Below the pieces are notes generated by a model. That model was not told the DNA's origin and ran no database searches. It saw only the letters and a program-made list of their open reading frames with translations. The translations under genes were made by a program, and so were the position numbers. From positions 562-64,561 of the forward strand of contig CAYRXT010000012.1 in assembly GCA_964428315.1 (NCBI GenBank): 64,000 nucleotides of DNA, in the 5' to 3' direction. Of the stretch, positions 2,335-47,565 are shown one piece after another. Source of the stretch: an uncultured Planctomycetales bacterium (lineage in GTDB: Bacteria > Omnitrophota > Gorgyraeia > Zapsychrales > CAYRXT01). The stretch's first letter is position 1; each line of letters starts with the position of its first letter.

Positions 2335-2943
2335 ATGTCTAATATAAATGAAGACGCCATCAAAGACGATATGCGCCGCGTGAACAGGGACATCCCCGAA
2401 GACATCATCCGCCGGGCGCAGGCCGGCGATGTTCGCGCCTTCGAGGAGGTTTACCGCCGTTACGGCAGGGACGTTTACGCGATCAGCCTGAGGATCCTGG
2501 CGAACACCTCCGACGCGCAGGACGTGACACAAGACGTGTTCGTGACGCTTTTTCGCAAATTGAAGGATTTCCGGTTCAAGGCGGCGCTTAGGACATGGAT
2601 CTACCGCGTCGCAATCAATGCCGCGCTTAATTGCCGGAAAAAGCGGGCGAGGACCGCCGGCCGCCAGGTCAACCTGGAAGATTACCCCGCGGCGGGCGCG
2701 GGCGCGCCCGAGGCGCAAAACCAGGCGGACAATGAGGCTCGCATGCGCCTTGCCGCCGCGCTCATGGACAGGCTTAACCCCGGACAAAAGGCCTGCCTTG
2801 TCCTGCGCAGTATTGAAGGGATGAGTTACCGGGAAATCGCCCAGACGCTCAATATCGGCATCAACACGGTGCGCTCCCGGATCCGGCGGGCGCGCCTGAC
2901 CCTGCTGGCCTTAAGACATGAGGAGACGGAAGGTGAACTGTAG
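2335..2943 (+). CDS. ECF (extracytoplasmic function) sigma-70 family RNA polymerase sigma factor
   Basis: 202 aa. Region 2 (FEEVYRRYGRDVYAISLRIL..AQDVTQDVFV) and region 4 HTH (EGMSYREIAQTLNIGINTVRSRIRRAR) are both present. The cognate anti-sigma gene overlaps its end. Confidence 0.9.
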   Translation: MSNINEDAIKDDMRRVNRDIPEDIIRRAQAGDVRAFEEVYRRYGRDVYAISLRILANTSDAQDVTQDVFVTLFRKLKDFRFKAALRTWIYRVAINAALNCRKKRARTAGRQVNLEDYPAAGAGAPEAQNQADNEARMRLAAALMDRLNPGQKACLVLRSIEGMSYREIAQTLNIGINTVRSRIRRARLTLLALRHEETEGEL

Positions 2944-3424
2944 AAAGGCACGGAATATAATATTGACAGATTATATCGACGGCGCGCTCTCCAAAAAAGA
3001 CGATGATGCCCTTGAGTCGCATCTGTCCGCGTGCGAAAAATGCCGTGTCCTGGCCGCGGAAGCCCGGCGGACGCTCCGAGATCCGTTTCCGGAAGCGTAT
3101 AACCCCGTACCGCCGGAGGCCATCTGGCGGAACATCGAAAGACAGATCATCGCGGAGCCGCGTGCCGCCTTCCGGCGCCAAGGTATACCGGTATGGGACC
3201 GGCTGGCCGGTCTTCGTCTGCCGTCCGTGTACCGTTGGGCACTGGCATCCGCCCTGGCGTTTTTGGTTGCCTTGACCGTTTTTCACCGGCCGGCACCGCG
3301 GCAGACGGCAGACGTAGAAGAGATGGACAAGGAGATTTCATACATCGCCTATATGCTGGATGAGGCCGCGCCGGAAGAATCCACCGAGGGTTACGGGACG
3401 GTCATTGAAGAATATTTCCTTTAG
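2918..3424 (+). CDS. Membrane-anchored anti-sigma factor with N-terminal zinc-binding ZAS motif
   Basis: Overlaps the sigma factor stop. The HLSACEKC (H-x3-C-x2-C) zinc-binding anti-sigma signature is followed by a single TM helix (WALASALAFLVALTVF) and a periplasmic tail. Start could be the GTG at ~2930 instead of the ATG at 2918. Confidence 0.7.
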   Translation: MRRRKVNCRKARNIILTDYIDGALSKKDDDALESHLSACEKCRVLAAEARRTLRDPFPEAYNPVPPEAIWRNIERQIIAEPRAAFRRQGIPVWDRLAGLRLPSVYRWALASALAFLVALTVFHRPAPRQTADVEEMDKEISYIAYMLDEAAPEESTEGYGTVIEEYFL

Positions 3425-3485
3425 GGGCGGACGCGGCCCTGGGAGAAACGGCCTGAATCAAGTGACGAAACAAAAGGAGGCCCTC

Positions 3486-4450: not shown

Positions 4451-4459
4451 CAGTATTAA

Positions 4460-4519
4460 GGGGCAGACGTTTTTATGCTGATAATTTCACGCAAAATACA
4501 TGTAAAAGACGTCTGCCCC
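4460..4519 (+). terminator. Stem-loop between the chaperone-like genes and the RND gene: 11-bp perfect stem (GGGGCAGACGT/ACGTCTGCCCC) with a 38-nt AT-rich loop. Candidate attenuator or partial terminator.
   Basis: Perfect inverted repeat read directly in the sequence. No U-tract follows, so a regulatory or processing role is as likely as termination. Confidence 0.4.
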
Positions 4520-4536
4520 TGATATTATAAAGAATT

Positions 4537-9610: not shown

Positions 9611-9861
9611 TATAGGACATCAAAGCCCCTAAAGGCCAGACTTTCTTGTCCGGCGAGCCGGCGGCCCGGCGGGCGGGGTTTTCCCTTCGGGCATGGACTG
9701 CGTCATACAGGATCCATACCGGGTTTAAGCGGGTTGACGGCCGGACGGTGCGGTTTAAACTTGGTTGAAAGGCGGCGGTTCGTCCGCGCGTCGCGGTCGG
9801 GACGTGCCAATACAAAATCCTTGTCAACCGGCAGGAAGCCGCTTACAATGGAGATGCTTTT

Positions 9862-10716
9862 GTGACCTTTCAGACGGAAGATTTTATCCCTATGGATAAA
9901 TACAACCAAAGACTGCAGGTCGACGAAAGAATCCTTTCGGCGGCCGTGCATTTTTCCCAGGATTCGGTGGTCATTACCACTAAAGACCTCGACCTCCCCG
10001 GACCGCATATCATTTACGTCAATCCCAAGTTCACGAAGATGACGGGCTATGAACCCGAAGATGTCCTGGGCAAGACGCCCCGGATCCTCCAGGGGCCCAA
10101 GACGGACCGTTCGGTTTTACAGAGACTCCGGAGCACTCTCGAGGCCGGGGGAGTCTTTTTCGGCCAGGCCGTCAATTACAGGAAAGACGGGACGGAGTTC
10201 TGGAACGAGTGGCACATCGAGCCCATCCGCGACGGACAGGGCAACGTGACCCATTACTTGTCCATCCAGCATGACGTGACCGACCGCAAAAAGGCCGAAG
10301 AGATTATCGCTCAAAAAAATAGCGCCTTAAAGGAGATTATCGAACAAATCGAAATCGAAAAAAGGACCATCAAAGAAGACGTACGTTTGAACGTCGAAAA
10401 AGTCCTCCTGCCGGCCCTCAGCAGGCTGTACCGGAAGGGGACCCGCCTGGACAAAAAATATATCGGCATTCTTGAAAACAGCTTGAAAGACCTGGCTTCG
10501 TCTTTCGGGAGCAGTGTGTCGGCCGACAAGAGCGCGCTTTCTCCCCGTGAAGTGGAAATCGCCAACCTCATTAAAAACGGCGTAAGCAGTAAAGAAATCA
10601 GCGGCCTACTTAATATCTCATTCAAGACCGTAGAGACTCACCGCAATAAAATCCGCAGAAAATTTGGGCTTCTCAATAAAGAGGTCAACCTAACTACTTA
10701 TTTGAGAAGTCTTTAA
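9862..10716 (+). CDS. PAS-domain transcriptional regulator with C-terminal LuxR-type HTH
   Basis: N-terminal PAS/PAC (IIYVNPKFTKMTGYEPEDVLGKTPRILQGPKTD...FWNEWHIEPIRDGQGNVTHYLSIQHDVTDRKKAE). C-terminal LuxR/GerE HTH (LSPREVEIANLIKNGVSSKEISGLLNISFKTVETHRNKIRRKFG). There is no receiver domain. Start is uncertain: GTG 9862 or ATG 9892. Confidence 0.75.
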   Translation: MTFQTEDFIPMDKYNQRLQVDERILSAAVHFSQDSVVITTKDLDLPGPHIIYVNPKFTKMTGYEPEDVLGKTPRILQGPKTDRSVLQRLRSTLEAGGVFFGQAVNYRKDGTEFWNEWHIEPIRDGQGNVTHYLSIQHDVTDRKKAEEIIAQKNSALKEIIEQIEIEKRTIKEDVRLNVEKVLLPALSRLYRKGTRLDKKYIGILENSLKDLASSFGSSVSADKSALSPREVEIANLIKNGVSSKEISGLLNISFKTVETHRNKIRRKFGLLNKEVNLTTYLRSL

Positions 10717-10843
10717 GATTCATTGGCACAAGTTTTGTGCCATCTATATATGCATACATGATGTCTAAGCTATTAAGAGGCGTTGACCGTCTTCTCCTTT
10801 CTGGTAATCTTAGAGTGCGTCACAGGAAAGAAAGGAGAAAGAA

Positions 10844-11443
10844 ATGCTTAAGGCCGTAAACACAACAGGGAAAAGAATGGGAACTGCATTGATCTGCCTG
10901 AGCCTCTGGGCCGCCACGGCCCGGACGGCAGCCGCGCAAGAGACCTCCGCGGCCCCCTTCGAGCCAAGCCACCGGGAGGGGAGCTTTGAAATGGCGCTTC
11001 AGGGCACCGGCGTCAAGACCATGGTCTTCTTCAAGGCCTTTGCCGCGGCCTTTTACATGAATCCGGAAGACGGCCGCAATCCGCTCGATGAGGTCGCCAA
11101 ACGCATAGAAGTGGAATACTTTGTCCGGATACCGGCAAAGAAGCTCAGCGATTACACGGTGGAACGCATGAAGGTCAATGTCCTCGAAGACGAGCTTGCC
11201 CAGATCCGGGATGAGATCGAGATGATGCGGCAGTACTTCGTCGATCTGAAACCCGGAGACAGGTTCGCGTTGACCTTTATACCGGGCGAGGGCACCAAGT
11301 TCGCCTACAACGGCCGGCTGACGGGGGTCATCGAGGGGGACCTGTTCGCCAGGGCCCTGTTCTCCGTGTGGATCGGAGAGAGGCCTTTTGATGAAAGATT
11401 AAAGAGGCAGATCCTCGGGCGGGACAGGAAAGAGCCATCGTAA
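10844..11443 (+). CDS. Chalcone-isomerase-like (CHI-fold, fatty-acid-binding type) secreted protein
   Basis: Signal peptide. The VKTMVFFKAFAAAFYM motif is characteristic of bacterial Chalcone_3/CHI-like proteins. It is the first gene of the lipid-modification operon. Confidence 0.65.
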   Translation: MLKAVNTTGKRMGTALICLSLWAATARTAAAQETSAAPFEPSHREGSFEMALQGTGVKTMVFFKAFAAAFYMNPEDGRNPLDEVAKRIEVEYFVRIPAKKLSDYTVERMKVNVLEDELAQIRDEIEMMRQYFVDLKPGDRFALTFIPGEGTKFAYNGRLTGVIEGDLFARALFSVWIGERPFDERLKRQILGRDRKEPS

Positions 11444-11482
11444 GACCGCTGGTTTCATCACGATAAAAAAGGAGAAGGAGAC

Positions 11483-11938
11483 ATGCCGCACAAACCCCTT
11501 AACGCGATAGAGTTTTTTGAGAACCTCCGTAAAGATTCGATGCACCTTGTCGAGGAGTTTTATGACGAGAACGTCCGGTTCAGCGATCCCATCGTCAATT
11601 TGACCAACCGCCGGCAGGTCAAAGATTACTATGTCAACCTGTACGCCAACGTCGAGTCGATTTCCTGGACATTCCCCGATGTGGTCTCGGAGAAAGACCG
11701 CTGCGCGCTCGCCTGGACCATGACCCTGAGGGCAAAAAACTTCAACGGCAACAGGCCGGTTATCGTCGACGGTGTTTCCGTCATCAAGTTCGGGGGCCGG
11801 GACGGAAAGGCCGTTTATCACCGCGATTATTTCGACATGGGCGCCTTCGTTTACGAGGGCCTGCCGGTTTTGGGCGGCCTGGTGCGTTTCGCCAAACGAA
11901 AGATGGCCGATTACCACAAGGCAGGGCGGCATGGGTGA
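11483..11938 (+). CDS. SnoaL-like / NTF2-fold protein
   Basis: 151 aa with an RBS AAGGAGAAGGAG. Size and pattern fit the NTF2-like superfamily. The end overlaps the next gene. Confidence 0.55.
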   Translation: MPHKPLNAIEFFENLRKDSMHLVEEFYDENVRFSDPIVNLTNRRQVKDYYVNLYANVESISWTFPDVVSEKDRCALAWTMTLRAKNFNGNRPVIVDGVSVIKFGGRDGKAVYHRDYFDMGAFVYEGLPVLGGLVRFAKRKMADYHKAGRHG

Positions 11939-12740
11939 ATATCTGAACATTATCCTGACGGGTTATCTGATCCTGGCGGCCGTCCAGACGGTGCTGTGGA
12001 TTATTCAGAATTTCACCAAAGACGCCTCAACGACCGATGTCGGCTGGTGCCTGGGGATGCCGGTCCTGGCGGGCTGGTATTTTATCAACCTCGAAGGGTT
12101 CGCGCTCAGGAAACTGCTGATCTTTGTCCCGCTTGTCATCTGGTCGCTGCGTTTGTCCTTCCATCTGGTCCGCCGCATGCGCCACGCCGGGAAGGAGGAC
12201 AGCCGCTACGCCCAGCTCAGGGATGAATGGGGCGGGCACGCCGGCCGGAATTTCTTTTTCATCTACCAGATCCAGCCGGTCTTTGACCTTATTTTGTCGG
12301 TACCTTTTTTTATCGTCTTTATGAACCCGGACCCGGCCATCAAGGGCGTTGAGATCGCCGCGTTGTTTTTGTGGGCCGGCGGACTCGCCGGAGAGACGCT
12401 GGCCGATGAACAGTTACGGCGTTTCACGGCAAATCCGGCCAACAAGGGGAGAGTATGCCAAAACGGCTTGTGGCGGTATTCGCGCCATCCCAACTTCTTT
12501 TTTGAATGGGTCATGTGGGTGGCCTACTTTGTCTTTGCCCTGGGTAGCCCTTACGGTCTGTACGGAGCCGTCGCACCAGCGCTGATGCTTGTTCTGCTCC
12601 TCAAGGTCACGGGGATCCCGATCATGGAAGAGCGGGCCCTGAAAAAAAAGGGTGAGGCCTTCAGGGAATATCAGGGGGCCACCAGCTTTTTCTTCCCGAT
12701 GCCGCCCCGAAAAAAAGCGAGGGAGTCCGATGAGAATTAA
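11931..12740 (+). CDS. DUF1295 family membrane protein (steroid 5-alpha-reductase / ICMT-like fold)
   Basis: The true start is ATG 11931, overlapping the previous stop. The ORF-track start at 11772 is an over-extension. Multi-TM. The conserved C-terminal block (GLWRYSRHPNFFFEWVMWVAYFV) is typical of the DUF1295 methyltransferase/reductase-like membrane family. Confidence 0.8.
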   Translation: MGEYLNIILTGYLILAAVQTVLWIIQNFTKDASTTDVGWCLGMPVLAGWYFINLEGFALRKLLIFVPLVIWSLRLSFHLVRRMRHAGKEDSRYAQLRDEWGGHAGRNFFFIYQIQPVFDLILSVPFFIVFMNPDPAIKGVEIAALFLWAGGLAGETLADEQLRRFTANPANKGRVCQNGLWRYSRHPNFFFEWVMWVAYFVFALGSPYGLYGAVAPALMLVLLLKVTGIPIMEERALKKKGEAFREYQGATSFFFPMPPRKKARESDEN

Positions 12741-13344
12741 GCGGTTGACAAAGTCCAGACGATTTGTCCGGTCCGCATTAGCCGGCGTCTTGTTTGTCCT
12801 GGTTGCGGCCGGACCGGGTTTCGCATCCGGGGTGGTCGAATTCGGCCCCGGGGAGACAACGATCGAGGGTTCGATCCGGTACACCGTGATCGGTCATTAC
12901 GAATTCGAATTCGACAGGTTCAAGGGGGAGATCGCGGTGGATGAAGACTCACGGGAGATCCTGGATGTCTATCTGGAGATCGAGGCGGAGAGCATAGGTT
13001 CAGAGTGTTTGTGGTGCGACAAGATCGTGCGTTCCGAACAGCTTCTGCACACGGAAAAACACCCCCTCATCGTCTTCAAGAGTCAAAAGATCTTCCGGGA
13101 CGAAGAAGGGTATCAGGTGACAGGCATTCTGGATATGCACGGAAAGACGAAGGAGATGACCTTTCCTTTCTCGGCGGAGTTCATCACGGACGAGCAGACC
13201 GGGGAAAACGGGATTGCCGTGAACGGCCGGTGGGTCATCAACCGGAAAGACTTCGATATCATATGGAACAGGCTGCTCGACGTCGGCGGGGTCCTTGTGG
13301 GCAACCATATTACGGTGGAATGGGGGATCCGGTCCGCAATCTAG
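12730..13344 (+). CDS. YceI-like (polyisoprenoid/lipid-binding) periplasmic protein
   Basis: Start ATG 12730 (MRIKRLTKSRR.., signal peptide) overlaps the DUF1295 stop. The beta-barrel YceI pattern (EGSIRYTVIGHYEFEFDRFKGEIAVDED...ITVEWGI) is present. Confidence 0.65.
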   Translation: MRIKRLTKSRRFVRSALAGVLFVLVAAGPGFASGVVEFGPGETTIEGSIRYTVIGHYEFEFDRFKGEIAVDEDSREILDVYLEIEAESIGSECLWCDKIVRSEQLLHTEKHPLIVFKSQKIFRDEEGYQVTGILDMHGKTKEMTFPFSAEFITDEQTGENGIAVNGRWVINRKDFDIIWNRLLDVGGVLVGNHITVEWGIRSAI

Positions 13345-13358
13345 AAAGACAGGAGATC

Positions 13359-13730
13359 ATGATGAACAAGATGTTTACGATGTCAGTGGCGGTGATGATT
13401 TTGTCCCTGCTGATTGTTCCCGGCGCGCAGGCCGAAGACGGCCCCGTCAAGAAGCTTGCCAGAGGCGTGGTCAACGTCGTGACGGCCCCGATCGAGATCC
13501 CCAAGCAGGCCAGGGCCTACTGGGTCGAGGGGGCGCGGGAGACCGACCATATCCTGGTCTGGATCGCCTCGGGAACGGTGTGGGGCATCATTCAGACAGT
13601 CAAAAGGGCGGGCTCGGGGGTGTGGGATATCGTGACCTTCCCGGTTGAAAAGCCCGCGGATTATGCCCCCCTGCTTGAACCGGATTACGTGTTCGAACAA
13701 TGGCCCCGGAACCCGGACAGCGGGAGATAA
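13359..13730 (+). CDS. Small secreted protein. Low-confidence resemblance to TIGR04073-type exosortase-system-associated small proteins.
   Basis: RBS AGGAG. Signal peptide (MMNKMFTMSVAVMILSLLIVPGAQA). The KLARGVVNVVTAPIEIP motif resembles the KLxRGxxNxxTxxxEIP signature of that family. The ORF-track 13005 start is an artefact. Confidence 0.5.
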   Translation: MMNKMFTMSVAVMILSLLIVPGAQAEDGPVKKLARGVVNVVTAPIEIPKQARAYWVEGARETDHILVWIASGTVWGIIQTVKRAGSGVWDIVTFPVEKPADYAPLLEPDYVFEQWPRNPDSGR

Positions 13731-13733
13731 GGC

Positions 13734-14429
13734 ATGAAATATTCCGTCATCATCCCGACGTACAACGCCCAGCGTCACCTTGAAGGATGTATCCGGTCCG
13801 TGTGTGCGGCCCTGCCGGAGAGCGAGATCATTGTGTCCGACGGCGGCAGTCTGGATAAGACGCGGGACATAGGCGTTAGGGAGAAAGCGAGGGTGATCGA
13901 TTCCCCCAAAGGAAGAGGAGTACAGCTGAACCGGGGCGCGGCCCGCGCGGCCGGAAAGATATTCCTCTTTTTGCACTGCGATTCCCGGCTGGATCCGGAG
14001 GCCGGCCGGGTTCTGGAGACATGGTTTGCCCGCGGAGACGTTCAGTCCGGAAAGTTTACCTTGAAATTCGACCGGGATTCGCGTCTGTTGGGGCTTTACG
14101 CGGCCCTGGCAAGGTTTGATTCTTTCCTGACGAGTTTTGGGGACCAGGGCATTGTGGTGAGAAAAGAATTATTTTGGAGGTTGGACGGATTTCCGGAATG
14201 GCCTCTTTTGGAAGACGTGAGATTTCTTCAAAAGGCCAGGAGGATAACCAAGATCCATACCCTTCCGGCGGTCGTGACGACATCGGCGGAACGCTTCCTT
14301 CAAAACGGCGTTATCAGACAGCAATGGCTTAATGCAGGTATTCTGATGAAGTACCGGCTCGGGCATTCGCCGGCGCGCCTCGCTTCGCAATACGAAAAAG
14401 GAGGGACGAGGGATGAAGGCATTCTTTAG
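13734..14429 (+). CDS. Family 2 glycosyltransferase (TIGR04283-like small GT2)
   Basis: MKYSVIIPTYNAQRHLEGCIRSV...SDGGSLDKT is a GT-A N-terminal nucleotide-binding region. Starts 3 nt after the previous stop. 231 aa. Confidence 0.75.
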   Translation: MKYSVIIPTYNAQRHLEGCIRSVCAALPESEIIVSDGGSLDKTRDIGVREKARVIDSPKGRGVQLNRGAARAAGKIFLFLHCDSRLDPEAGRVLETWFARGDVQSGKFTLKFDRDSRLLGLYAALARFDSFLTSFGDQGIVVRKELFWRLDGFPEWPLLEDVRFLQKARRITKIHTLPAVVTTSAERFLQNGVIRQQWLNAGILMKYRLGHSPARLASQYEKGGTRDEGIL

Positions 14430-15201
14430 AGCGGCAATCATAGGAACAGGTCTTTTTATTTTCGGAGGGTTGAACGCCATGAGTTACGCCCAGGAAATGA
14501 ACCATGAGCTCTTCAGCGGGGTGCTCGGTGATCACGTGGAAAAGGGTCTGGTCGATTACCCGGGCTTATGCGGCGACAAGCGCCTGGAGGCCTACCTGGG
14601 GCAACTGGAAGGCACCGATCCAAGCGCTCTTTCGCGAGATGAAGCCATGGCCTTCTGGATCAACGCCTACAACGCCTTCACCCTGGAACTGATCTGCGGG
14701 AATTATCCTCTGAAGAGTATCAACGAACTGCATACGGGGGGACTGATTCTCGGCTCCATCTTGAAGAAGACCGCGTGGGACAGGGGTTTTATCGAGATCA
14801 ACGGGCGGGACTACAGCCTGGGGCAGATAGAGCACAAGATATTGCGGCCGCGGTTTGACGATCCAAGGATCCACTTCGCCATTGTGTGCGCTGCGCGCAG
14901 TTGTCCGCCTCTGCGTTCCGAGGCTTATGAGGCCGGGGCGCTTGACCGGCAGCTGGATGACCAGGGCAGGCTATTCCTGGCTGAACGAAGCGATCTGAAC
15001 GATTACGATCTGGACAAGAAGATCGCGTATCTCTCGCCGATATTTTCCTGGTTTAAGAAAGACTTCGGGGAAGACAGGACGGACCGGCTTCTCTTTCTGG
15101 CGGACTACATGCCACCGGAGGCGGCGCGGTCCGTCAGGGCGGCCCCGGAGGAGTGGACGATACGATACAAGACTTATGATTGGAGCCTGAATGAACAGTA
15201 G
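14413..15201 (+). CDS. DUF547 domain protein
   Basis: Classic DUF547 block (EAMAFWINAYNAFTLELI...HFAIVCAARSCPPLR). Has a signal peptide. Overlaps the GT2 end. Confidence 0.8.
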   Translation: MKAFFRAAIIGTGLFIFGGLNAMSYAQEMNHELFSGVLGDHVEKGLVDYPGLCGDKRLEAYLGQLEGTDPSALSRDEAMAFWINAYNAFTLELICGNYPLKSINELHTGGLILGSILKKTAWDRGFIEINGRDYSLGQIEHKILRPRFDDPRIHFAIVCAARSCPPLRSEAYEAGALDRQLDDQGRLFLAERSDLNDYDLDKKIAYLSPIFSWFKKDFGEDRTDRLLFLADYMPPEAARSVRAAPEEWTIRYKTYDWSLNEQ

Positions 15202-15985
15202 ATGCGTTATTACGGTCTTTGTCTTTCTGATCGCGGCTCTTCCCTTGTCCGGCCCGGCCGCGGAGTCCTTCAGCGGCGAAACCCGGGAGAGGGTGGTGAC
15301 GGTAGACGAGGAGACCGGCGAGGCCCGTTCGGTTTCCCAGGTCCGAATCAAGGGCGTTCCGGATGCGCCGGATTCTTACATCCTCCGCGTCCGGGGCCGG
15401 GGCCGGCACAAGACGCTGGAAGAGGCCCGGTGGATGAGCGAAGCATTGTTAACCAAAGAGGACGGCCGCGTGCGTGTTCAAAACAGCGTCAAGACGGTTT
15501 ATTCCGGCGGGGAGATCGTTTTCCGGGCGAGTAAACGTTACGACTATGAGAACAAGACAGTATCCCTGGAGATAGAGGACAAGGGGAAGGGCCCGACGCT
15601 TACAAAGGAATTTCCCATCCGGGGGGCTATCTGCGACGACGTGACGCTTGTCCACGTCCTGGACGCGGTTGTCCCCGCGTCGCCGGAAGGCGGTCCCGGC
15701 CGGTTTTATCTGTTGACCAATGAACCCAGGCTTTACCATGTCATGGTCAAAAACAGGGGCAAAGACACCCTGAACCTGCCCCAGGGCAAAAAGGAGGCGG
15801 ACAAGATCCAGCTTATGGCCGACCTGGGGCCTTTGACGGAGATGGCCGCGAAATGGGTGCCGGCGACGTATGTCTGGATGGACCGGGGCCATTCCGAACG
15901 CTGGCTGCAGTATCAGGGGATGGAGGCCGGATACGGCTCGGCCTATATCAAGGCTTTTGTTACTGAAAGGGAGAAACAGCCATGA
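15191..15985 (+). CDS. Secreted hypothetical protein
   Basis: Signal peptide (VFVFLIAALPLSGPAAE). Translationally coupled to flanking genes. No motif recognised. Confidence 0.5.
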   Translation: MNSRCVITVFVFLIAALPLSGPAAESFSGETRERVVTVDEETGEARSVSQVRIKGVPDAPDSYILRVRGRGRHKTLEEARWMSEALLTKEDGRVRVQNSVKTVYSGGEIVFRASKRYDYENKTVSLEIEDKGKGPTLTKEFPIRGAICDDVTLVHVLDAVVPASPEGGPGRFYLLTNEPRLYHVMVKNRGKDTLNLPQGKKEADKIQLMADLGPLTEMAAKWVPATYVWMDRGHSERWLQYQGMEAGYGSAYIKAFVTEREKQP

Positions 15986-16905
15986 GAAAGATCCTTGTCA
16001 TGGGAGCCACCGGTTTTGTGGGCTCAAGACTCGTGGCCCGATTGATGGAAAAAGGCTTTTCGGTCAGGGCCGCCGGACGCTCCCGGCATAAACTCGAAAA
16101 ACGTTTGGGGAGCGGACGAAACAACCTGGAGTTGGTTGAGGCCGATGTACTTGACGCCGTCTCCCTCGGGAAGGCGTTGCAGGGAGTGGATACCGCTTTT
16201 TATCTTGTTCACTCCATGAATCCCCAGAACCCGGACTTCGCCGGGGCGGACAGGAAAGCGGCCGGGAACATGGCCCGTTTGAGCGGGGAGTGCGGAGTCA
16301 AAAAGATCATTTATCTGAGCGGACTGGGGGAAGAAGGAGAAGGTCTCAGCAAACACCTCCGGTCCCGGCATGAAGTCGAAGAGATCCTGCGCTCGGGCAC
16401 AGTCCCGGTGACCGTTCTGCGGGCGGCGATGATCATTGGCGCGGGCAGCGCCTCTTTCGAGATCATGAGGCATCTGGTCAACCGTCTTCCGGTCATGATC
16501 ACCCCCCGCTGGGTCAGTACGCCTTCCCAGCCCATTGCCGTCGATAACGTTATCCATTATCTATGCGGGTGCATCGACCGGGAGCAGACCTGGGGACAGA
16601 CTTATGATATCGGAGGAGATGATATCGTCTCTTACCGCGATCTCATGCGTGTTTATGCCGAGGAGGCCGGTCTTCGGAAAAGGTTCGTAATCCCCGTCCC
16701 GGTCCTGACGCCCTGGCTGAGCGCCTTATGGATCCATCTGGTCACGCCGATGCCCTCTTATATCGCAAGGCCGCTGGCCGAGGGGCTAAGGAATCCCGTT
16801 ATCTGTCAGGACCGGCGCATCACAGAGGTTATCCGCCAGGACCTCCTGGACTGCCGGGAGGCGATCCGCAGGGCGTTAAACGATATTCATAATAAGGAAA
16901 GGTGA
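15982..16905 (+). CDS. NAD(P)H-binding NmrA/SDR-family oxidoreductase (atypical SDR with C-terminal DUF2867-like region)
   Basis: MRKILVMGATGFVGSRLVARL is a Rossmann GxxGxxG motif. About 300 aa. RBS AAAGGGAGA. Confidence 0.8.
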   Translation: MRKILVMGATGFVGSRLVARLMEKGFSVRAAGRSRHKLEKRLGSGRNNLELVEADVLDAVSLGKALQGVDTAFYLVHSMNPQNPDFAGADRKAAGNMARLSGECGVKKIIYLSGLGEEGEGLSKHLRSRHEVEEILRSGTVPVTVLRAAMIIGAGSASFEIMRHLVNRLPVMITPRWVSTPSQPIAVDNVIHYLCGCIDREQTWGQTYDIGGDDIVSYRDLMRVYAEEAGLRKRFVIPVPVLTPWLSALWIHLVTPMPSYIARPLAEGLRNPVICQDRRITEVIRQDLLDCREAIRRALNDIHNKER

Positions 16906-16911
16906 GCTTCC

Positions 16912-17961
16912 ATGAGAAGATTTATGAGTGCCGGTCAGTTTTTACTGGAGAAGGGATGCGTGCCCGACGGACTGGTCCGGATCGGCATCCGCGGACTCTT
17001 GAAGGACAAACTCAAAGAGGAAAGACGGCTCGAGAAGACGGCGGGGGCGAGGCGTAAGAGCGACCTGGTCGGTTTTTTGCGTTCATCCCCTATCGCCGTG
17101 AACACTCAGGACGCCAATGCCCAGCATTATGAGCTTCCCACGGAGTTTTTCCGTCTGGTTATGGGAAGACACATGAAATACAGCTGCGGTATCTGGAATG
17201 AAGGGACCGCTGATCTGGACACCGCGGAACGCGATATGCTGGAACTCACCGTCCGCAGGGCGGAGGTGGCGGACGGACAGAGGATACTTGAACTGGGATG
17301 CGGATGGGGTTCCTTGACCCTTTATTTGGCGGAAAAGTTTCCCGCCAGCCGTATCACCGGTGTCTCCAACTCTTCAACGCAGAAAGAATACATCCTGAGG
17401 GAGGCCCGTTCCAGGGGGCTGGACAATGTCCGCATCATCACGGCGGACATGAATGATTTCACGATCGATGAACAATTCGACCGGGTCGTCTCGGTCGAGA
17501 TGTTTGAGCATATGCGCAATTACGGCCGGCTTTTCGAAAAGATCGCCGGTTTCCTGGATGACGGCGGCAAGCTGTTTGTCCACATCTTTGCCCACCGGAA
17601 ATTCGCCTACCTGTATGAGGAACGCGACCCCCATGACTGGATAGGCCGGTATTTTTTCACCGGCGGTCTCATGCCCAGCGAAGACCTGTTCACGTTCTTT
17701 CAGGAGTATTTCTCCATCGAGAGGCAGTGGCGTGTCCCGGGGCATCATTATCAGAAGACAGCGGAGGCCTGGCTGAAGAACACGGACAGGAACAAGGCCA
17801 GGATCCTGCCTATTTTGCGGGAGACGTACGGCCCTGATCAGTTCAAGACGTGGTGGATATACTGGCGCGTGTTTTTCATGTCCTGCGCCGAGCTCTGGGG
17901 CTACCAAAAAGGGACCGAATGGGTTGTCTGTCATTACCTGTTCACAAAAAGGGGGGCATAA
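16912..17961 (+). CDS. SAM-dependent methyltransferase of the cyclopropane-fatty-acyl-phospholipid synthase (CMAS) family, copy 1
   Basis: SAM-binding motif I (ILELGCGWGSLTLYLA) and motif (RVVSVEMFEHM) are typical of the CFA/mycolic-acid cyclopropane synthase family. 349 aa, shorter than canonical Cfa. Confidence 0.85.
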   Translation: MRRFMSAGQFLLEKGCVPDGLVRIGIRGLLKDKLKEERRLEKTAGARRKSDLVGFLRSSPIAVNTQDANAQHYELPTEFFRLVMGRHMKYSCGIWNEGTADLDTAERDMLELTVRRAEVADGQRILELGCGWGSLTLYLAEKFPASRITGVSNSSTQKEYILREARSRGLDNVRIITADMNDFTIDEQFDRVVSVEMFEHMRNYGRLFEKIAGFLDDGGKLFVHIFAHRKFAYLYEERDPHDWIGRYFFTGGLMPSEDLFTFFQEYFSIERQWRVPGHHYQKTAEAWLKNTDRNKARILPILRETYGPDQFKTWWIYWRVFFMSCAELWGYQKGTEWVVCHYLFTKRGA

Positions 17962-19245
17962 ATGGAAAGAATAGCCGTCATCGGCACCGGGATCGCGGGG
18001 ATGGGCGCCGCCTATTTTTTAAGGGACCGCTATGACGTCACGTTTTACGAGAAGAACGATTATCCCGGCGGGCATACCAACACGGTATCGGTGAATGAGG
18101 GCGGACGTGAGGTCCGCATGGACACGGGTTTCATGGTCTATAACGAGGTGACCTACCCCAACCTTACGAGGCTTCTGGGGGAACTGGACGTCAGGACGAA
18201 GCCGACCACGATGTCCTTCAGCGTCCAGCATATCCCCACGGGTCTGGAATACCGCGGGACGGGTCTGAACAATCTTTTTTGTCAGCGTAAAAATATGTTC
18301 AAGGCGTCTTTCATCAGGATGCTCTGGGAAGTGCACCGTTTCAGGATGGAAGCGGACGAGGTCCTAACCGGGGAGCGGTATCACGACTATACGCTGGCAC
18401 GGTATGTCCGGGAGAAGGGTTACAGTGAGGACTTCCTGACGAAGTTCCTGGTCCCGATGAGCTCGGCGGTCTGGTCCACACCTCCCGGGATGATGCTGGA
18501 GTTTCCCGCCATGGCACTGGTCATGTTTTTCAAAAATCACGGTTTTCTGGGTTTGAAGACCCAGCACCAGTGGTTTACCGTCGATGGGGGGAGCCGGCAT
18601 TACCGCGATAAAATCATGGACCTTTTCCCCGGGAAGGTGAGGCTCAACACCCCGGCAAAAAAAGTCGCCTTACGCGACGGGAGAGTCTTTGTGGAAGACG
18701 GCAAAGGGGAAAGCGGGGCTTACGACAAGGTCATCATCGCCTCGCACGCGGACGAGGCCCTGGCCCTGCTCGAGAAGCCGACCTCCGCCCAGAAAGACCT
18801 GCTGGGGCGATTTGCGTACCAGGCCAATCCCACGGTCTTGCATACCGATACGGCCCTCATGCCGCGCATTAAACGCGCCTGGTCGTCGTGGAATTACCGT
18901 ATAGGTCCCGACAGGACGGGACAAATGCAAACCACGACCATCTACGACATGAACAGCCTTCAGAAGGTGTCGGAGCGGGAGAATTATTTTGTCTCGATCA
19001 ACGACCCCGGCTGGATCGATCCCGGAAAGATACTCTGGAAGACCGAGTATACCCATCCCGTCTATACTGTCGGGGCGCTTGAGGCGCAGAAGGGACTCGG
19101 CCGGCTGAACGACGCGGGGCCCGTCTATTTTTGCGGGAGTTACTTCCGTTACGGTTTCCACGAAGACGCCCTGACCTCGGCTGTCGAGGCCGTCCGGGCG
19201 CTCACGGGACGTTATCCGGATGGCTACGGGGGGTTTGCGCCATGA
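17962..19245 (+). CDS. NAD(P)/FAD-dependent oxidoreductase (amine-oxidase/phytoene-desaturase-like), homologous to the UfaD-type fatty-acyl desaturase of the DUF1365-Cfa locus
   Basis: N-terminal dinucleotide-binding motif (IAVIGTGIAGMGAAYFL). 427 aa. Sits immediately before DUF1365 with ATGA coupling. Confidence 0.85.
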   Translation: MERIAVIGTGIAGMGAAYFLRDRYDVTFYEKNDYPGGHTNTVSVNEGGREVRMDTGFMVYNEVTYPNLTRLLGELDVRTKPTTMSFSVQHIPTGLEYRGTGLNNLFCQRKNMFKASFIRMLWEVHRFRMEADEVLTGERYHDYTLARYVREKGYSEDFLTKFLVPMSSAVWSTPPGMMLEFPAMALVMFFKNHGFLGLKTQHQWFTVDGGSRHYRDKIMDLFPGKVRLNTPAKKVALRDGRVFVEDGKGESGAYDKVIIASHADEALALLEKPTSAQKDLLGRFAYQANPTVLHTDTALMPRIKRAWSSWNYRIGPDRTGQMQTTTIYDMNSLQKVSERENYFVSINDPGWIDPGKILWKTEYTHPVYTVGALEAQKGLGRLNDAGPVYFCGSYFRYGFHEDALTSAVEAVRALTGRYPDGYGGFAP

Positions 19246-20033
19246 ATTCGTGCCTTTACGAAACCCGGATCATGCATTCACGTCTCGAGCCGAAGAAACA
19301 CCGTTTCGCGTACGGATTCTTTTCCTTTTATCTGGACCTGGACGAGATCGATGAACTGGCGAGGAAAATACCGGGATTCAGCCGAAACCGCTGGGACCTG
19401 TATTCCTTCCACGACCGGGATCATGTCGACATGGGACGGGGCAGCGTCAAGCATAATATCCTCGCCTTTCTCGGCGAACACGGGATCGGTCTTGACGGCG
19501 GCCGGATTATGCTGTTGACCTATCTCCGGACATTCGGTTATCTTTTCAATCCCGTATCCTTCTTTTTCTGTTTCGATGCCGAGGAGAGGCCGGTCTGCGT
19601 CGTGGCCGAAGTGGGCAATACCTTTGGAGAAATGAAGCTGTTCCTGATCCGGGACGGCGCCTTTAAGGACGGCCGTTTCCGCGACAGGCATGACAAATAC
19701 TATTATGTTTCTCCTTTCACAAAGCTGGACGACCAGCTGGATTTCCGGATCGCCGTCCCGGAGGAGAAGATGACCGTCGGGGTGGACACATCCCGAAACG
19801 GGAAGAAGGTCCTGGTGGCGTCGATGACCGGCGAAAGACGCGAGTTGACCGGGGGCAATCTTTTGCGCCTGAGCCTGAAATTCCCCTGGATCACCCTTAA
19901 GGTCATTGTCCTGATACACTGGCATGCCCTCTTACTCTGGATCAAGAAGATACCTTATGAACTGAAGACAAGCAATCCCCATTTGCAGAAGGAGGTCCAC
20001 CGTGTCCGGCGTAAACACTCTCGCTCTGCCTGA
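19242..20033 (+). CDS. DUF1365 family protein (UfaO-like)
   Basis: The true start is ATG 19242 (MNSCLYETRIMHSRLEPKKHRFAY..), which shares ATGA with the upstream stop. The ORF-track start at 19131 is an over-extension. The motif and size fit DUF1365, which is always found between amine oxidase and Cfa. Confidence 0.85.
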   Translation: MNSCLYETRIMHSRLEPKKHRFAYGFFSFYLDLDEIDELARKIPGFSRNRWDLYSFHDRDHVDMGRGSVKHNILAFLGEHGIGLDGGRIMLLTYLRTFGYLFNPVSFFFCFDAEERPVCVVAEVGNTFGEMKLFLIRDGAFKDGRFRDRHDKYYYVSPFTKLDDQLDFRIAVPEEKMTVGVDTSRNGKKVLVASMTGERRELTGGNLLRLSLKFPWITLKVIVLIHWHALLLWIKKIPYELKTSNPHLQKEVHRVRRKHSRSA

Positions 20034-21264
20034 TACGCGGCGAAATGAAGCCAAGGGCGGTCTCTATGAGAACATCGTTGATCACCTCATGCGCCCTATG
20101 CGTCTGGGACGGCTCGAGGTGCGCCTGCCCGGCGGCCGTGTTGTGGCCTACGGCGGAGGAGTCCAAGGCGTGCACGCGCGCATGACGGTTCATCGTCGCG
20201 ATTTTTTCCGGAAATGCGTCCTTTTCGGCGACGTCGGCTTCGGGGAATCGTACGTGGACGGGGACTGGGACACGGACAGCGTCACGAAGGTCATCGAATG
20301 GATGATCCTCAACGTGGAAAGTCATCCGACGCTGATGTCGGACAGAGAGAAGCGTTCTCCGGTCAATCTTTTGAAATTTCTCAACAATCTCCTCATCCCG
20401 CTCAGAACAAACACGCTGTCCGGCAGCCGGCGGAATATCCACAGCCATTATGATCTGGGCAACGAATTTTTCCGTCTGTTCCTTGATCCGTCCATGACGT
20501 ATTCTTCCGCCTTTTTCAGGACGGAGGAAGACACCCTGGAGGAGGCCCAGTATCAGAAGTATGAAACGTTGTGCCGCAAGATAAGGCTGAACAAGGACGA
20601 TCACGTCCTGGAGATCGGGAGCGGGTGGGGCGGTTTCGCACTCTATGCCGCCAGACGATACGGGTGCCGCGTCACCACGATCACGGTCTCGCGGCAGCAG
20701 TACGATTTTGTCCGCGACCGGATAGAGCGGGAAGGGCTGGAGGAAAGAGCCCGGGTCGCCATGAAAGATTACCGGGAAATTGACGGCCGGTTCGACAAGA
20801 TCGTATCCATCGAAATGCTGGAGGCGGTCGGCCACGCGTATTACGAAGCCTATTTCCGGCAGTGCCACCGTCTGCTCAAGAAGGACGGCATACTTGGTCT
20901 GCAGGTTATCCTCTCGCCGGACAACCGTTACGATTCATTCCGCAGGAATGTGGACTGGATTCAGAAACACGTCTTCCCGGGAAGCCTTCTGCCTTCTTTC
21001 GCCGTGCTCCAGCGGGCCGTTAACAGGACCGGGGATCTGTGCCTGCACGATTTCGAGGACATGACGCAGTCCTACGCCCGGACTCTGCGCCAGTGGTTTG
21101 ATAATTTCAACGGCCGGCTGGACGAGGCGCGTTCTCTGGGGCTGTCAGAGGCCTTTATCAGGAAATGGAATTATTATTTGTGTTATTGCGAGGCGGCGTT
21201 CAGGATGAGGAACATCGCGGCGGCCCAGATCGTGTTCAGCCGTCCGAACAACGCCATGTTATGA
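20002..21264 (+). CDS. cfa: Cyclopropane-fatty-acyl-phospholipid synthase-like SAM-dependent methyltransferase (UfaM/Cfa-like), copy 2
   Basis: 420 aa. HVLEIGSGWGGFALYAARRYG is SAM motif I. FDKIVSIEMLEAVG and the C-terminal YYLCYCEAAFR are hallmark Cfa blocks. Confidence 0.9.
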   Translation: MSGVNTLALPDTRRNEAKGGLYENIVDHLMRPMRLGRLEVRLPGGRVVAYGGGVQGVHARMTVHRRDFFRKCVLFGDVGFGESYVDGDWDTDSVTKVIEWMILNVESHPTLMSDREKRSPVNLLKFLNNLLIPLRTNTLSGSRRNIHSHYDLGNEFFRLFLDPSMTYSSAFFRTEEDTLEEAQYQKYETLCRKIRLNKDDHVLEIGSGWGGFALYAARRYGCRVTTITVSRQQYDFVRDRIEREGLEERARVAMKDYREIDGRFDKIVSIEMLEAVGHAYYEAYFRQCHRLLKKDGILGLQVILSPDNRYDSFRRNVDWIQKHVFPGSLLPSFAVLQRAVNRTGDLCLHDFEDMTQSYARTLRQWFDNFNGRLDEARSLGLSEAFIRKWNYYLCYCEAAFRMRNIAAAQIVFSRPNNAML

Positions 21265-21274
21265 GGACCGAAAT

Positions 21275-21784
21275 GTGAAGGCCAGGACGGTCGTCGTCAA
21301 CGATAAGATGCAGAAGAATTACCGTTATTGTCGGACGGAGCCGGCCGGGAGACATTTCGCCGCGGAATTCCGGCCCGATCTCACGCCGAGAGAGATGCTC
21401 GCGCTCGGGGTGTTCGGGGGCAAATACATGACCGACTGCGGTGCGGAATTTCCCTCAAGCTGGTTCCGCGGGGCGAAATTATGCGCCGAACGCCATGATC
21501 CAAGGCTCAATCATTTCGGTGTCAGTGCCAGCCAGCCGCTCAGGGTGTGGGAGAGGAAGGGCTGGATCCATCCGGCGGACCCCCGGGGCTGGTTCCAGTG
21601 GTACTGTCGCTATTATATGGGCCGGCGCATGCCCGAGGAAGATCGGCGTCAGATCAAACGGTGGAAGGCCATGAAGCGCCATGCGGCCCAGATCAGAAAG
21701 CACTGCCCCCCGGGAGACGGCGGCTGCCGGCCGAGACAGCGCCAGGCCCTGCTGCACTGGGCCTACGACAGCCGGGCCATCTGA
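21275..21784 (+). CDS. Conserved hypothetical Cys/Trp/Arg-rich protein, last gene of the operon
   Basis: 169 aa, 10 nt after the Cfa stop. No family recognised. Confidence 0.45.
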   Translation: MKARTVVVNDKMQKNYRYCRTEPAGRHFAAEFRPDLTPREMLALGVFGGKYMTDCGAEFPSSWFRGAKLCAERHDPRLNHFGVSASQPLRVWERKGWIHPADPRGWFQWYCRYYMGRRMPEEDRRQIKRWKAMKRHAAQIRKHCPPGDGGCRPRQRQALLHWAYDSRAI

Positions 21785-21930
21785 GTACAGCGTAAGGCTC
21801 TTTATCCTTTTGTCCGAGTTTCTTTGACACGGACACAAGGGCATAGTAATATGATATCCACTAAGTGAAAGACAAGCTTGTGTCGGCATAACGGTTCATC
21901 ATGGAAGACCATAAAAAGGAGGTTGGACCA

Positions 21931-22356
21931 ATGGATAAAGCGACATTGATCAAAAACCTGAACGAGGACCTGGCTCACGAGTACAGCGCCATCGTCCAGT
22001 ACATCACCTACGCGGCCAAGGTGACGGGGCCCTACAGGCCTCAGCTGACGCAGTTTTTTCTCGCCGAGGTGGCGGACGAGCAGGGGCACGCGCAGTTCCT
22101 GGCGAACAAGATCGTGGCCCTTGGCGGAGAGCCCACCACGACGCCCGCCCCGGTCAAGGCCGCGAACACGGACCGCGAAATGGTGGGGGCCGTCCTGGAG
22201 GCCGAGCGCCTGGCCGTGAAGAATTACACGAAGAGGGCCAAAGAGGCGGATGAATTCGGCGACAAGGGACTGGTCGTCCAGATAGAGGACATGATCCGCG
22301 ATGAGAGCGGTCACTCGGAAGAGAGCGAGAGGATTTTAAAAGACTGGCCGATTTAA
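21931..22356 (+). CDS. Ferritin-like domain protein (bacterioferritin/Dps-like four-helix bundle)
   Basis: RBS AAGGAGG 7 nt before ATG 21931. Ferritin-like di-iron ligand pattern (LNEDLAHEYSAIVQYI....EQGHAQFLANKI...EAERLAVKNY). Confidence 0.7.
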   Translation: MDKATLIKNLNEDLAHEYSAIVQYITYAAKVTGPYRPQLTQFFLAEVADEQGHAQFLANKIVALGGEPTTTPAPVKAANTDREMVGAVLEAERLAVKNYTKRAKEADEFGDKGLVVQIEDMIRDESGHSEESERILKDWPI

Positions 22357-24342: not shown

Positions 24343-24504
24343 AAAACCGGCGGAGGGTTCCCGTTGTTCATAAAAAATTTTGTCACGGCGCCGGCAGTAT
24401 GGTATACTCAATCCATACAACCTGAAACCGCGCGGCGTTGCAGCCGCGACGATCACCCATCCAACTGAATATCCAAAACAGGGGGATGGGATTTTTTTTG
24501 CCTT

Positions 24505-46503: not shown

Positions 46504-46570
46504 GTACATGCTTAAGCGGCAGGCCTTATGGAACCATGTCTCTTGAAATCGGACGCCTTCTGGTTATATT

Positions 46571-47563: not shown

Positions 47564-47565
47564 AT

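Follow-up and report, generated by a model that had tools for sequence, protein, structure and literature searches.

A 14-gene operon on the + strand at positions 10844-21784 of a 64-kb window (the whole stretch of DNA analysed here, part of a 66,931-bp contig from an uncultured bacterium) is best explained, with a probability of roughly 0.55, as a mosaic of a furan-fatty-acid-type lipid module (module A, genes g1-g5 and g9-g13), a second module inserted into it (module B, g6-g8), a hitch-hiking orphan gene (g14) and control by an adjacent regulator of the PAS-LuxR type. Module A would be a member of a widespread photo-oxidative-stress lipid-remodelling cluster, described in bacteria and algae, and would act on phospholipid-bound monounsaturated acyl chains. 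The order of the genes, their family membership, the patterns of their conservation and the split into modules are direct observations on this locus and its relatives. The genes of the operon are listed below, each with its junction to the preceding gene.

g1, 10844..11443, + strand: exported chalcone-isomerase-like (CHI-like) protein of the fatty-acid-binding type (Chalcone_3, 105.5 bits; signal-like N-terminus in the translation)
g2, 11483..11938, + strand: SnoaL/NTF2-like small protein (SnoaL_2, 52.3 bits); gap of 39 nt
g3, 11931..12740, + strand: DUF1295 integral membrane protein, steroid-5-alpha-reductase/ICMT-like (DUF1295, 224.7 bits); overlap of 8 nt
g4, 12730..13344, + strand: exported YceI-like lipid- or polyisoprenoid-binding protein (YceI, 82.3 bits); overlap of 11 nt
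g5, 13359..13730, + strand: exported small protein of the TIGR04073 family (64.5 bits, cutoff 50); gap of 14 nt
g6, 13734..14429, + strand: glycosyltransferase of family 2 (GT2), TIGR04283 (212.7 bits, equivalog cutoff 182); gap of 3 nt
g7, 14413..15201, + strand: exported DUF547 protein (101.7 bits; signal-like N-terminus); overlap of 17 nt
g8, 15191..15985, + strand: exported protein with no assigned family (DUF3108, 23.6 bits, below the cutoff of 26; signal-like N-terminus); overlap of 11 nt
g9, 15982..16905, + strand: NmrA-like atypical short-chain dehydrogenase/reductase (SDR), NAD(P)-binding (NmrA, 63.8 bits); ATGA overlap
g10, 16912..17961, + strand: short CMAS-family methyltransferase dependent on S-adenosylmethionine (SAM), of the branch resembling coclaurine N-methyltransferase (CNMT) (CMAS, 145.5 bits); gap of 6 nt
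g11, 17962..19245, + strand: FAD-dependent amine-oxidase/phytoene-desaturase-like enzyme, UfaD-like (Amino_oxidase, 71 bits; NAD_binding_8, 49.8 bits); abutting, zero gap
g12, 19242..20033, + strand: DUF1365 protein, UfaO-like (DUF1365, 245.6 bits); ATGA overlap
g13, 20002..21264, + strand: long CMAS-family methyltransferase of the DUF1365-linked subfamily, in the position of UfaM/RSP1089 (CMAS, 290.4 bits); GTG start, overlap of 32 nt
g14, 21275..21784, + strand: conserved orphan protein of 169 aa with no Pfam, NCBIfam or PDB match; gap of 10 nt

The fourteen-gene run is a genuine operon. A preliminary description of this DNA had proposed fourteen same-strand genes with 0-39 nt gaps, and all fourteen open reading frames are present where it placed them, with junctions that are either overlaps of 4-32 nt or gaps of 0-39 nt; of the eight start/stop overlaps that it listed, seven are real, whereas at 17962 the genes g10 and g11 merely abut. 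The seven gene models that were looked up (six operon genes and the PAS-LuxR gene) match exactly the proteins called on the source contig, and the looked-up window proteins are singletons at 90% identity. A consensus scan of the operon revealed no credible internal promoters or terminators; it gave 22 terminator-like sites (compared with 14.6 +/- 3.6 in shuffled sequences), every one of them inside a coding sequence. The window has no match to Rfam at gathering thresholds, and the intergenic RNAs upstream and downstream of the operon fold no better than their shuffles (z of -0.58 and -1.15, respectively). All protein families proposed earlier, including DUF1365, amine oxidase and both copies of CMAS, score above their curated Pfam or NCBIfam cutoffs.

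The core of module A is formed by the FAD enzyme g11, the DUF1365 protein g12 encoded immediately downstream of it, and the long CMAS protein g13, which follow one another in the same order as ufaD, ufaO and ufaM of Rhodopseudomonas palustris, where the contiguous genes (RPA2571-2569) are both required and sufficient to make furan fatty acids (FuFA) (PMC7380195). UfaM methylates cis-vaccenate on phospholipids to give 11Me-12t-18:1, UfaD (RSP1091, the FAD enzyme) desaturates the methylated product to a conjugated diene, and UfaO (RSP1090, DUF1365) closes the furan ring with O2, from which the furan oxygen derives, whereas a further methylase, FufM (RPA0924; 26% identical to UfaM), adds a second methyl group to 9M5-FuFA (PMC7380195). 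The earlier proposal of an operon built on this trio holds: the three window proteins are 42% (g11, over 420 aa), 37% (g12, near full length) and 40% (g13, near full length) identical to the FAD oxidoreductase, the DUF1365 protein and the cyclopropane fatty acid (CFA) synthase-family protein, respectively, of an Azospirillum plasmid operon. Its Rhodobacter precedent is correct with regard to the chemistry, since the three enzymes do make methylated and furan fatty acids, but not with regard to gene order: in R. sphaeroides UfaM (RSP2144) is encoded outside the operon, and RSP1089 (Cfa-like), RSP1088 and RSP1087 are dispensable (PMC7380195), so that the contiguous trio is that of R. palustris. 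The R. sphaeroides operon RSP1091-1087 resembles that of the window in having extra small genes. On the basis of these similarities, the g11-g13 core appears to be a module of the UfaD/UfaO/UfaM type.

The catalytic steps and products, as well as the target and signal of the regulator considered below, are those that we infer. Methylation of the acyl chain by the UfaM-like g13, with SAM as the methyl donor, would be followed by FAD-dependent desaturation by g11 to a conjugated diene and by O2-dependent formation of the furan ring by g12, with a second methylation by the FufM-like g10 as a possible fourth step. The exported CHI-like, YceI and TIGR04073 proteins may serve in the envelope to handle or transport lipids that have been modified or oxidised.

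The distribution of the other genes shows that the core is larger than the trio. We surveyed 85 DUF1365 loci, with flanks of up to 10 kb on each side, using every protein of the window. Homologs of the FAD oxidase g11 and of the long CMAS g13 are each present in 77 loci, those of the short CMAS g10 in 76 (60 of them at 40% identity or more) and those of the DUF1295 protein g3 in 56. The second CMAS gene and DUF1295 are therefore part of the cluster core and not additions to it, and the expanded accessory set claimed in the preliminary description is mostly the ordinary extended form of the cluster, as its other families recur in close relatives and on plasmids. Homologs of the CHI-like g1 occur in 7 of the 85 loci; those of YceI (g4), the TIGR04073-like g5 and NmrA (g9) in three each, which are the closest relatives; that of the PAS-LuxR gene in one; and those of g2, g6, g7, g8 and g14 in none.

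The g12 family itself comprises 4241 homologs, with the nearest at 63% identity. The closest ones (59-63% identity) belong to Omnitrophota, a Planctomycetales metagenome-assembled genome (MAG) and similar uncultured bacteria, followed by Bacteroidota, Verrucomicrobiota, Leptospira and Cyanobacteriota; the DUF1365 profile has no solved structural relatives. Among the comparator loci, L001-L007 are operons from Omnitrophota-type and other MAGs, L173 is from Shinella and L174 from a plasmid of Acinetobacter sp. WY4. The annotated gene order (Pfam) of the nearest relatives is MarR-DUF1475-DUF1295-(Pyr_excise)-short CMAS-oxidase-DUF1365-long CMAS-g5-like-YceI-NmrA-(DUF1731)-CHI-x-lipocalin. The Acinetobacter plasmid carries lipocalin-desaturase-FAD oxidoreductase-DUF1365-CFA-synthase-family-DUF1295-SAM methyltransferase, near which are genes for a chalcone isomerase and an NTF2 protein, and the Shinella plasmid cluster reads sigma-ChrR-DUF1295-short CMAS...DUF2177...DUF1365; in both of these the g10-type methyltransferase gene directly follows the one for DUF1295. 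On the Azospirillum plasmid, a sigma factor of the extracytoplasmic function (ECF) group and a cupin (ChrR-type) anti-sigma factor are divergent from FAD oxidoreductase-DUF1365-CFA-synthase-family-DUF3833, and NTF2 and SDR genes are also present; g2 aligns end to end (E 9e-11) with the NTF2 protein beside this operon. Genes of the CHI-like, NTF2/SnoaL, SDR and lipocalin families are thus recurrent companions of the core, in MAGs of Omnitrophota as well as on plasmids of Acinetobacter, Shinella and Azospirillum.

Loci L001-L007 and L174 share with the window DUF1295, the short CMAS, the amine oxidase, DUF1365, the long CMAS and the CHI-like, g5-like, YceI, NmrA and NTF2 genes, with identities of 34-67% for the genes compared (NTF2 was not aligned, and in L174 only g10 was, at 49%). 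Within L001-L003, the homologs of g4, g5 and g9 show 41-47%, 49-55% and 59-61% identity, respectively, and the g5 homologs are placed after the long CMAS gene. The TIGR04073 family is associated by name with exosortase systems; g5 is assigned to it by its profile score. Unlike the window, these loci have the accessory genes downstream of the core, possess DUF1475, lipocalin and UV-repair genes that are missing from the window operon, and lack both g14 and the GT2/DUF547/g8 block. The UV-damage repair genes inside the relatives' operons encode a T4-endonuclease-V-like protein (Pyr_excise) in L001-L003 (positions 7239-7691 of L001 and L003) and UvdE in L006 and L007 (14777-15685 in L007, at the operon end). 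The operons of R. sphaeroides and R. palustris likewise have no GT2/DUF547/g8 insert, and neither a YceI nor a TIGR04073 gene.

The two methyltransferases of module A differ in their affinities. The best PDB match of g10 is a plant CNMT (6gkv, 247.6 bits, compared with 108 bits for CFA synthases, 7qos), and among PDB sequences the plant N-methyltransferases of the coclaurine, pavine and tetrahydroprotoberberine types are far closer to g10 than the CFA synthases are. Its E-x-x-E-H motif (VEMFEHM) aligns with IELFEHM of the plant enzyme, and the residues E196, E199 and H200 are kept in 59 of 60 homologs, the remaining one being not alignable. Against the CFA-synthase equivalogs of NCBIfam, g10 scores 161, 122 and 118 bits, all below the cutoffs. 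Its identity to g13 (about 25-28%) is similar to the 26% between FufM and UfaM, and by this analogy g10 may have a FufM-like role; the gene for the second methylase of R. palustris is outside the ufa operon, whereas g10 lies inside that of the window. The same families occur together in a eukaryote. The singlet-oxygen/SAK1 regulon of Chlamydomonas includes CFA1, CFA2/CPLD27 (annotated as a coclaurine N-methyltransferase), DUF1365, DUF1295, DUF2177 and SDR genes (PMC4067076), which makes the association of the two methyltransferase types with DUF1365 and DUF1295 an old one that is linked to stress. The Chlamydomonas genes are dispersed in the nucleus under a regulator that is a eukaryotic phosphoprotein, unlike the operon of the window.

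The long CMAS protein g13 has its best PDB and NCBIfam similarities with CFA synthases, but it misses every CFA-synthase equivalog cutoff of NCBIfam (285 of the required 400 bits for PRK11705, 287 of 600 for CPFASynBruc and 235 of 650 for CfaB). Mapped onto E. coli Cfa (6bqc), its active-site signature is S169/E274/A275/Q301/Y358, plus I303. The bicarbonate-site residues of Cfa are C139, E239, H266, I268 and Y317 (PMC3132707, citing Courtois and Ploux 2005), and g13 departs from this canonical set by Ser for C139 and Gln for H266 while retaining E239, I268 and Y317; it also has Ala for the His that follows E239. Among the 77 DUF1365-linked homologs of g13, E274, A275, Q301 and Y358 are each kept in 73-75, with A275 (75/77) and Q301 (74/77, three being not alignable at the Gln) present in every alignable one, whereas S169 is common to 50 of the 77, the others having A, G or C. 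The Azospirillum CFA-synthase-family protein carries the same signature. The signature marks the oxidase- and DUF1365-linked subfamily of CMAS proteins. The cyclopropane synthases of cotton are fused to an FAD-oxidase-like domain. The Ser and Gln changes were at one point considered as evidence that g13 is not a cyclopropane synthase; this argument was dropped, because the active cyclopropane synthases of cotton bear the same changes (PMC3132707) and the signature consequently does not tell a methylase from a cyclopropane synthase.

This similarity to the cotton enzymes is one reason to consider that module A makes cyclopropane, cyclopropene-type or mid-chain methyl-branched chains, with the long CMAS acting as a cyclopropane synthase in the manner of the plant oxidase-CMAS enzymes and with the FAD enzyme and DUF1365 in other redox roles, possibly without O2. 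The relationship of g13 to CFA synthases is in line with such products, as is its position in the operon, which it shares not only with R. palustris ufaM but also with RSP1089, dispensable for FuFA, and the host lineage may be oxygen-poor. On the other hand, the conserved linkage of amine oxidase, DUF1365 and CMAS is the R. palustris arrangement that is required and sufficient for FuFA synthesis, g13 stays below all the CFA-synthase cutoffs, and the UV-repair genes of related operons together with a flavin-sensor regulator suit oxygen-and-light stress. We regard such products as unlikely.

The second part of the mosaic, module B, comprises g6-g8 and appears, from its distribution, to be a separately conserved and independently mobile trio that was inserted between g5 and g9. 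In the 83 DUF547 loci surveyed, the neighbouring genes encode a GT2 in 21 cases, DUF2064 in 16 and an ArsS-like radical SAM protein in 15, and lipid-core genes were found near DUF547 in none. The glycosyltransferase g6 is 47-54% identical to the GT2 encoded upstream of DUF547 in L086-L088, L175 and L177, which in L086, L175 and L177 immediately precedes it; homologs of g8 (43-44% identity) follow DUF547 directly in L086, L175 and L177, and a more distant one (29%) adjoins the GT2 gene in L088. The gene order in L175 is TIGR04283-DUF547-g8-like-x-x-TIGR04282-ArsS (TIGR04167, 447 bits versus a cutoff of 300), and in L087 and L088 genes for DUF2064, an ArsS-like radical SAM protein and a member of the fatty-acid-hydroxylase family are also present. 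The independent mobility of the trio is suggested by these recurrent partners, TIGR04282 and ArsS, and by the absence of lipid-core genes from the DUF547 loci. In the nearest relatives of the lipid operon the g5-like, YceI and NmrA genes follow one another, which is the neighbourhood that the insert interrupts here, and among the 168 loci examined the window is the only one in which the trio is found in a lipid operon. Being translationally coupled, module B would be co-expressed with module A, and this does not require that the two act on the same substrate. An alignment of the DUF547 family (window 14413-15201) has an invariant VCAxxSCPPLR segment with two Cys, as well as invariant His, Arg and Trp. 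A confident model of g7 (predicted local distance difference test, pLDDT, 89.5) has no neighbour among solved folds, and g8 has no solved structural relatives.

If the trio retains the context in which it is usually found, it may work with ArsS and TIGR04282 proteins encoded elsewhere in the genome to give an arsenosugar-type (5'-deoxyribosyl) conjugate, possibly lipid-linked, with its position in the operon providing co-regulation only. This would fit the score of g6 above the TIGR04283 equivalog cutoff, the union of TIGR04283, DUF547, g8-like, TIGR04282 and ArsS genes in L175, the closest DUF547 context, and the frequency of ArsS-like or DUF2064 genes near DUF547. However, there are no homologs of ArsS, TIGR04282, DUF2064 or the fatty-acid hydroxylase in the 64-kb window, the trios of L086 and L177 are without ArsS in the available sequence, and the trio of the window, unlike the arsenosugar-type neighbourhood, is embedded in a lipid operon. 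The 'arsenosugar' names of TIGR04282 and TIGR04283 appear to be based on gene neighbourhood. Our literature search yielded no biochemical work on these two families or on DUF547. We therefore hold this assignment to be quite unlikely. A functional splice is equally doubtful: in that case, the trio would be an envelope module able to move between gene contexts, adding a sugar-like group to modified membrane lipids or processing them, either with ArsS (arsenosugar lipids) or with a UfaD/UfaO core, and the whole unit would be switched in this non-phototrophic Omnitrophota-like bacterium by a LOV-like sensor of light or redox stress that lacks the adduct Cys.

Another possibility is that all fourteen genes form one pathway whose product is an unusual acyl chain that is glycosylated, oxygenated or methylated, with GT2, DUF547 and g8 acting on the product of the core. 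The trio is indeed tightly embedded, with a gap of 3 nt between g5 and g6 and overlaps at g6/g7, g7/g8 and g8/g9, so that it is probably co-translated; the GC content is even across the operon, with no break at the insert; and lipid enzymes are found among the neighbours of the trio elsewhere, such as the fatty-acid hydroxylase, which gives a weak OlsE-like match. In addition, MarR-DUF1475-lipocalin genes of the kind typical of module A are found in L177 at a distance of 3.4 kb, upstream of its GT2-DUF547-g8-like trio. These genes (L177, 2584-3980) are 71-83% identical to those of L001 with a 42-residue DUF1295 remnant between them; they appear to be a collapsed form of the L001 lipid operon and are located near a SOUL-domain gene. 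Nevertheless, g6, g7 and g8 are missing from all 85 DUF1365 loci and the lipid-core genes from all 83 DUF547 loci, the recurrent partners of the trio are TIGR04282 and ArsS, and g7 and g8 are apparently exported, whereas acyl-modifying enzymes are cytoplasmic or membrane-associated. The glycosylated acyl chain of the preliminary description is thus speculation, since the trio belongs to ArsS/TIGR04282 clusters and does not accompany lipid genes in other loci, and a single integrated pathway seems very unlikely.

The terminal gene g14 is probably co-transcribed with the rest of the operon, given the gap of 10 nt, but by its distribution it is not part of the lipid module and looks like a hitch-hiking conserved orphan. 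It belongs to a family of proteins of about 169 aa with at least 8000 homologs, of which the best 120 show 69-78% identity and come from many metagenomes and MAGs; no other gene of the operon comes near this degree of conservation. Its homologs are absent from all 85 DUF1365 loci, and their neighbourhoods in three genomes are unrelated to one another and to lipid genes. There is no PDB relative of g14 by sequence or by fold, and none of the best 120 homologs has a Pfam domain. Among the invariant positions of the family are several Cys and Trp residues as well as a DPRGWFQWYCRY motif; a longer homolog, P0341, has a PF01541 domain.

The most plausible regulator of the operon is encoded directly upstream of it, with the following elements between 9821 and the start of g1.

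9821..9849, + strand: sigma-70-like promoter TTGTCA-17-TACAAT before the PAS-LuxR gene (consensus match only, 10/12)
9862..10716, + strand: PAS-LuxR candidate regulator with a LOV-like PAS domain without the adduct Cys and a LuxR/GerE helix-turn-helix (HTH) domain (PAS_9, 75 bits; GerE, 49 bits); translation probably starts at the ATG at 9892
10724..10742, no strand assigned: perfect palindrome of 8+3+8 nt, TGGCACAA-GTT-TTGTGCCA (in full TGGCACAAGTTTTGTGCCA), just past the stop of the PAS-LuxR gene and before g1

The PAS-LuxR gene lies 127 nt upstream of g1 on the same strand, and in the Omnitrophota MAG locus L007 a 69%-identical PAS-LuxR gene (5611-6435) is found directly upstream of the homologous operon, again on the same strand; in 6 of the 85 DUF1365 loci the regulator position is occupied by MarR. 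The best PDB matches of the protein are the FAD-binding PAS domain of MmoS (3ewk) and then dozens of LOV domains (E 1e-20 to 1e-27). Its LOV-like motifs are RILQGPKTD, NYRKDG, FWN and SIQHDVT, and we take the flavin-pocket positions to be those of RxLQGPxTD, NYRKDG, FWN and the Q in SIQHDVT. In the LOV-type motif (GKTPRILQGPKTD), both the window protein and its L007 homolog have Pro at the position of the adduct Cys, the motif GXNCRFLQ reading GKTPRILQ in the window and GKTPGILQ in L007. As the adduct Cys of LOV photoreceptors is replaced by Pro and the preceding Asn by Thr, classical LOV photochemistry is excluded, whereas photoreduction or redox sensing would be possible for a domain of this kind. 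EL222 is a LOV-HTH one-component regulator, and the window protein shares with regulators of the EL222 type the order of a PAS domain followed by a LuxR-type HTH.

A flavin-based input of light or redox state to the operon is plausible in view of this LOV-like PAS domain and of the control of a related cluster in Pseudomonas, where phrB-SDR-FAD oxidoreductase-ufaM genes are light-induced via LitR and a short LOV protein (PMC9758184). There, the same lipid cluster is coupled to a flavin/LOV light input and to DNA photorepair genes, although the Pseudomonas LOV is a separate short protein acting through the MerR-type LitR, whereas the window has a single PAS-LuxR protein without the photoadduct Cys. 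We propose that this LOV-like protein may serve as a flavin light or redox sensor in place of ChrR/sigma-E, LitR or MarR. The palindrome at 10724-10742, which occurs nowhere else in the window, may act as an operator or form a weak hairpin; its role as a shared operator was considered and is unsupported, as it is absent from L007, and a sigma-54-like reading (TGGCAC-N5-TTGT, with one half like a -24 element) was dropped because the -12 GC requirement does not hold.

The preliminary description had instead pointed to an ECF sigma/zinc anti-sigma pair 8 kb upstream.

2335..2943, same strand as the efflux genes that follow: ECF sigma factor (Sigma70_r2/r4)
2918..3424: zf-HC2 anti-sigma factor (zf-HC2 only)

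Rhodobacter-type operons are under ChrR/sigma-E control, the ChrR/sigma-E system of V. cholerae responds under blue light (PMC5241685), and such genes adjoin the homologous operons in Azospirillum and Shinella. The pair does exist in the window, but its proposed link to the lipid operon is probably wrong. The anti-sigma protein has no ChrR-type cupin domain in Pfam and aligns with the Azospirillum cupin anti-sigma factor over only 36 N-terminal residues around the zinc finger, while the sigma factor is 26% identical to that of Azospirillum. Both genes head a same-strand run at 2335-9116, in which they are followed by two Metal_resist/LTXXQ (CpxP-like) periplasmic proteins, a transporter of the resistance-nodulation-division (RND) family (1042 aa) and an efflux protein of the outer membrane (OEP); this run looks like a self-contained operon for efflux under envelope or metal stress. 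Between it and g1 stand an opposite-strand DUF1499 gene and the PAS-LuxR gene. No match to the TGATC-N15-20-CGTA consensus (PMC5241685) was found upstream of g1 in the search for an ECF-type promoter that the preliminary description had suggested, and the five matches in the window (two expected) are all elsewhere. The pair is therefore not ChrR-like, a role for it as a ChrR/sigma-E-type controller of the lipid operon in the manner of Rhodobacter and Caulobacter is most improbable, and the PAS-LuxR protein is the better candidate.

Several points weigh against the mosaic of a furan-type module, an inserted trio and PAS-LuxR control. The relationship to UfaM, UfaD, UfaO and FufM is drawn from Pfam families and from alphaproteobacterial operon proteins at 37-42% identity, and the Ser and Gln residues of g13 do not discriminate between the two activities considered for it. 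In R. sphaeroides, RSP1089 and two more operon genes have no detectable role in FuFA synthesis, and by analogy g13 may act otherwise. The chemistry of UfaO needs O2, yet the nearest relatives of the operon are Omnitrophota-type MAGs of uncertain oxygen relations. The proximity of the two modules in L177 hints that they may be linked in function or regulation in this lineage, and the association of the PAS-LuxR gene with the operon is seen in two genomes that do not share the palindrome.

Immediately downstream of the operon, the window contains a ferritin/rubrerythrin-like gene (21901-22356) with its own sigma-70-like promoter TTGACA-17-TAATAT at 21824-21852; a ferritin-like gene and a catalase gene are also found near the Shinella cluster (L173). 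This gene is followed at 22474-27900 by an envelope glycan/lipid group with TPR, PMT_2, GT2 and GT4 genes. A second envelope glycan/lipid group at 44291-50697 comprises radical SAM (not ArsS-like), GFO_IDH_MocA, LPG_synthase_TM, GT2, sugar-phosphate isomerase-like and polysaccharide deacetylase genes. Four long open reading frames (425-614 aa) have no Pfam match: 531-2057, 28917-30761, 31087-32646 (- strand) and 50863-52140.

Earlier work in Rhodobacter, Rhodopseudomonas, Pseudomonas, Vibrio and Chlamydomonas already connects the core cluster with furan and methylated fatty acids as well as with stress from light or singlet oxygen, and current understanding of it stays as it is unless experiments are done. 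Distinctive of this locus are the spliced-in TIGR04283-DUF547-g8 trio, the PAS-LuxR regulator with a Cys-less LOV-like domain and the rearranged gene order. The locus mainly widens the known range of the cluster to an uncultured lineage, and it shows which accessory genes travel with the core, namely those for DUF1295 and the CNMT-like methyltransferase and those of the CHI-like, NTF2, YceI and NmrA families; these accessory families lack an assigned function even in model organisms. It also provides a rare physical link between the lipid cluster and the uncharacterised DUF547/TIGR04283 module, and it nominates the Cys-less LOV-like PAS-LuxR protein as a new type of regulator for this stress response. 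Were the splice of the trio functional, it would open a first way into the function of DUF547 and TIGR04283 and supply a natural case of Cys-less LOV signalling.

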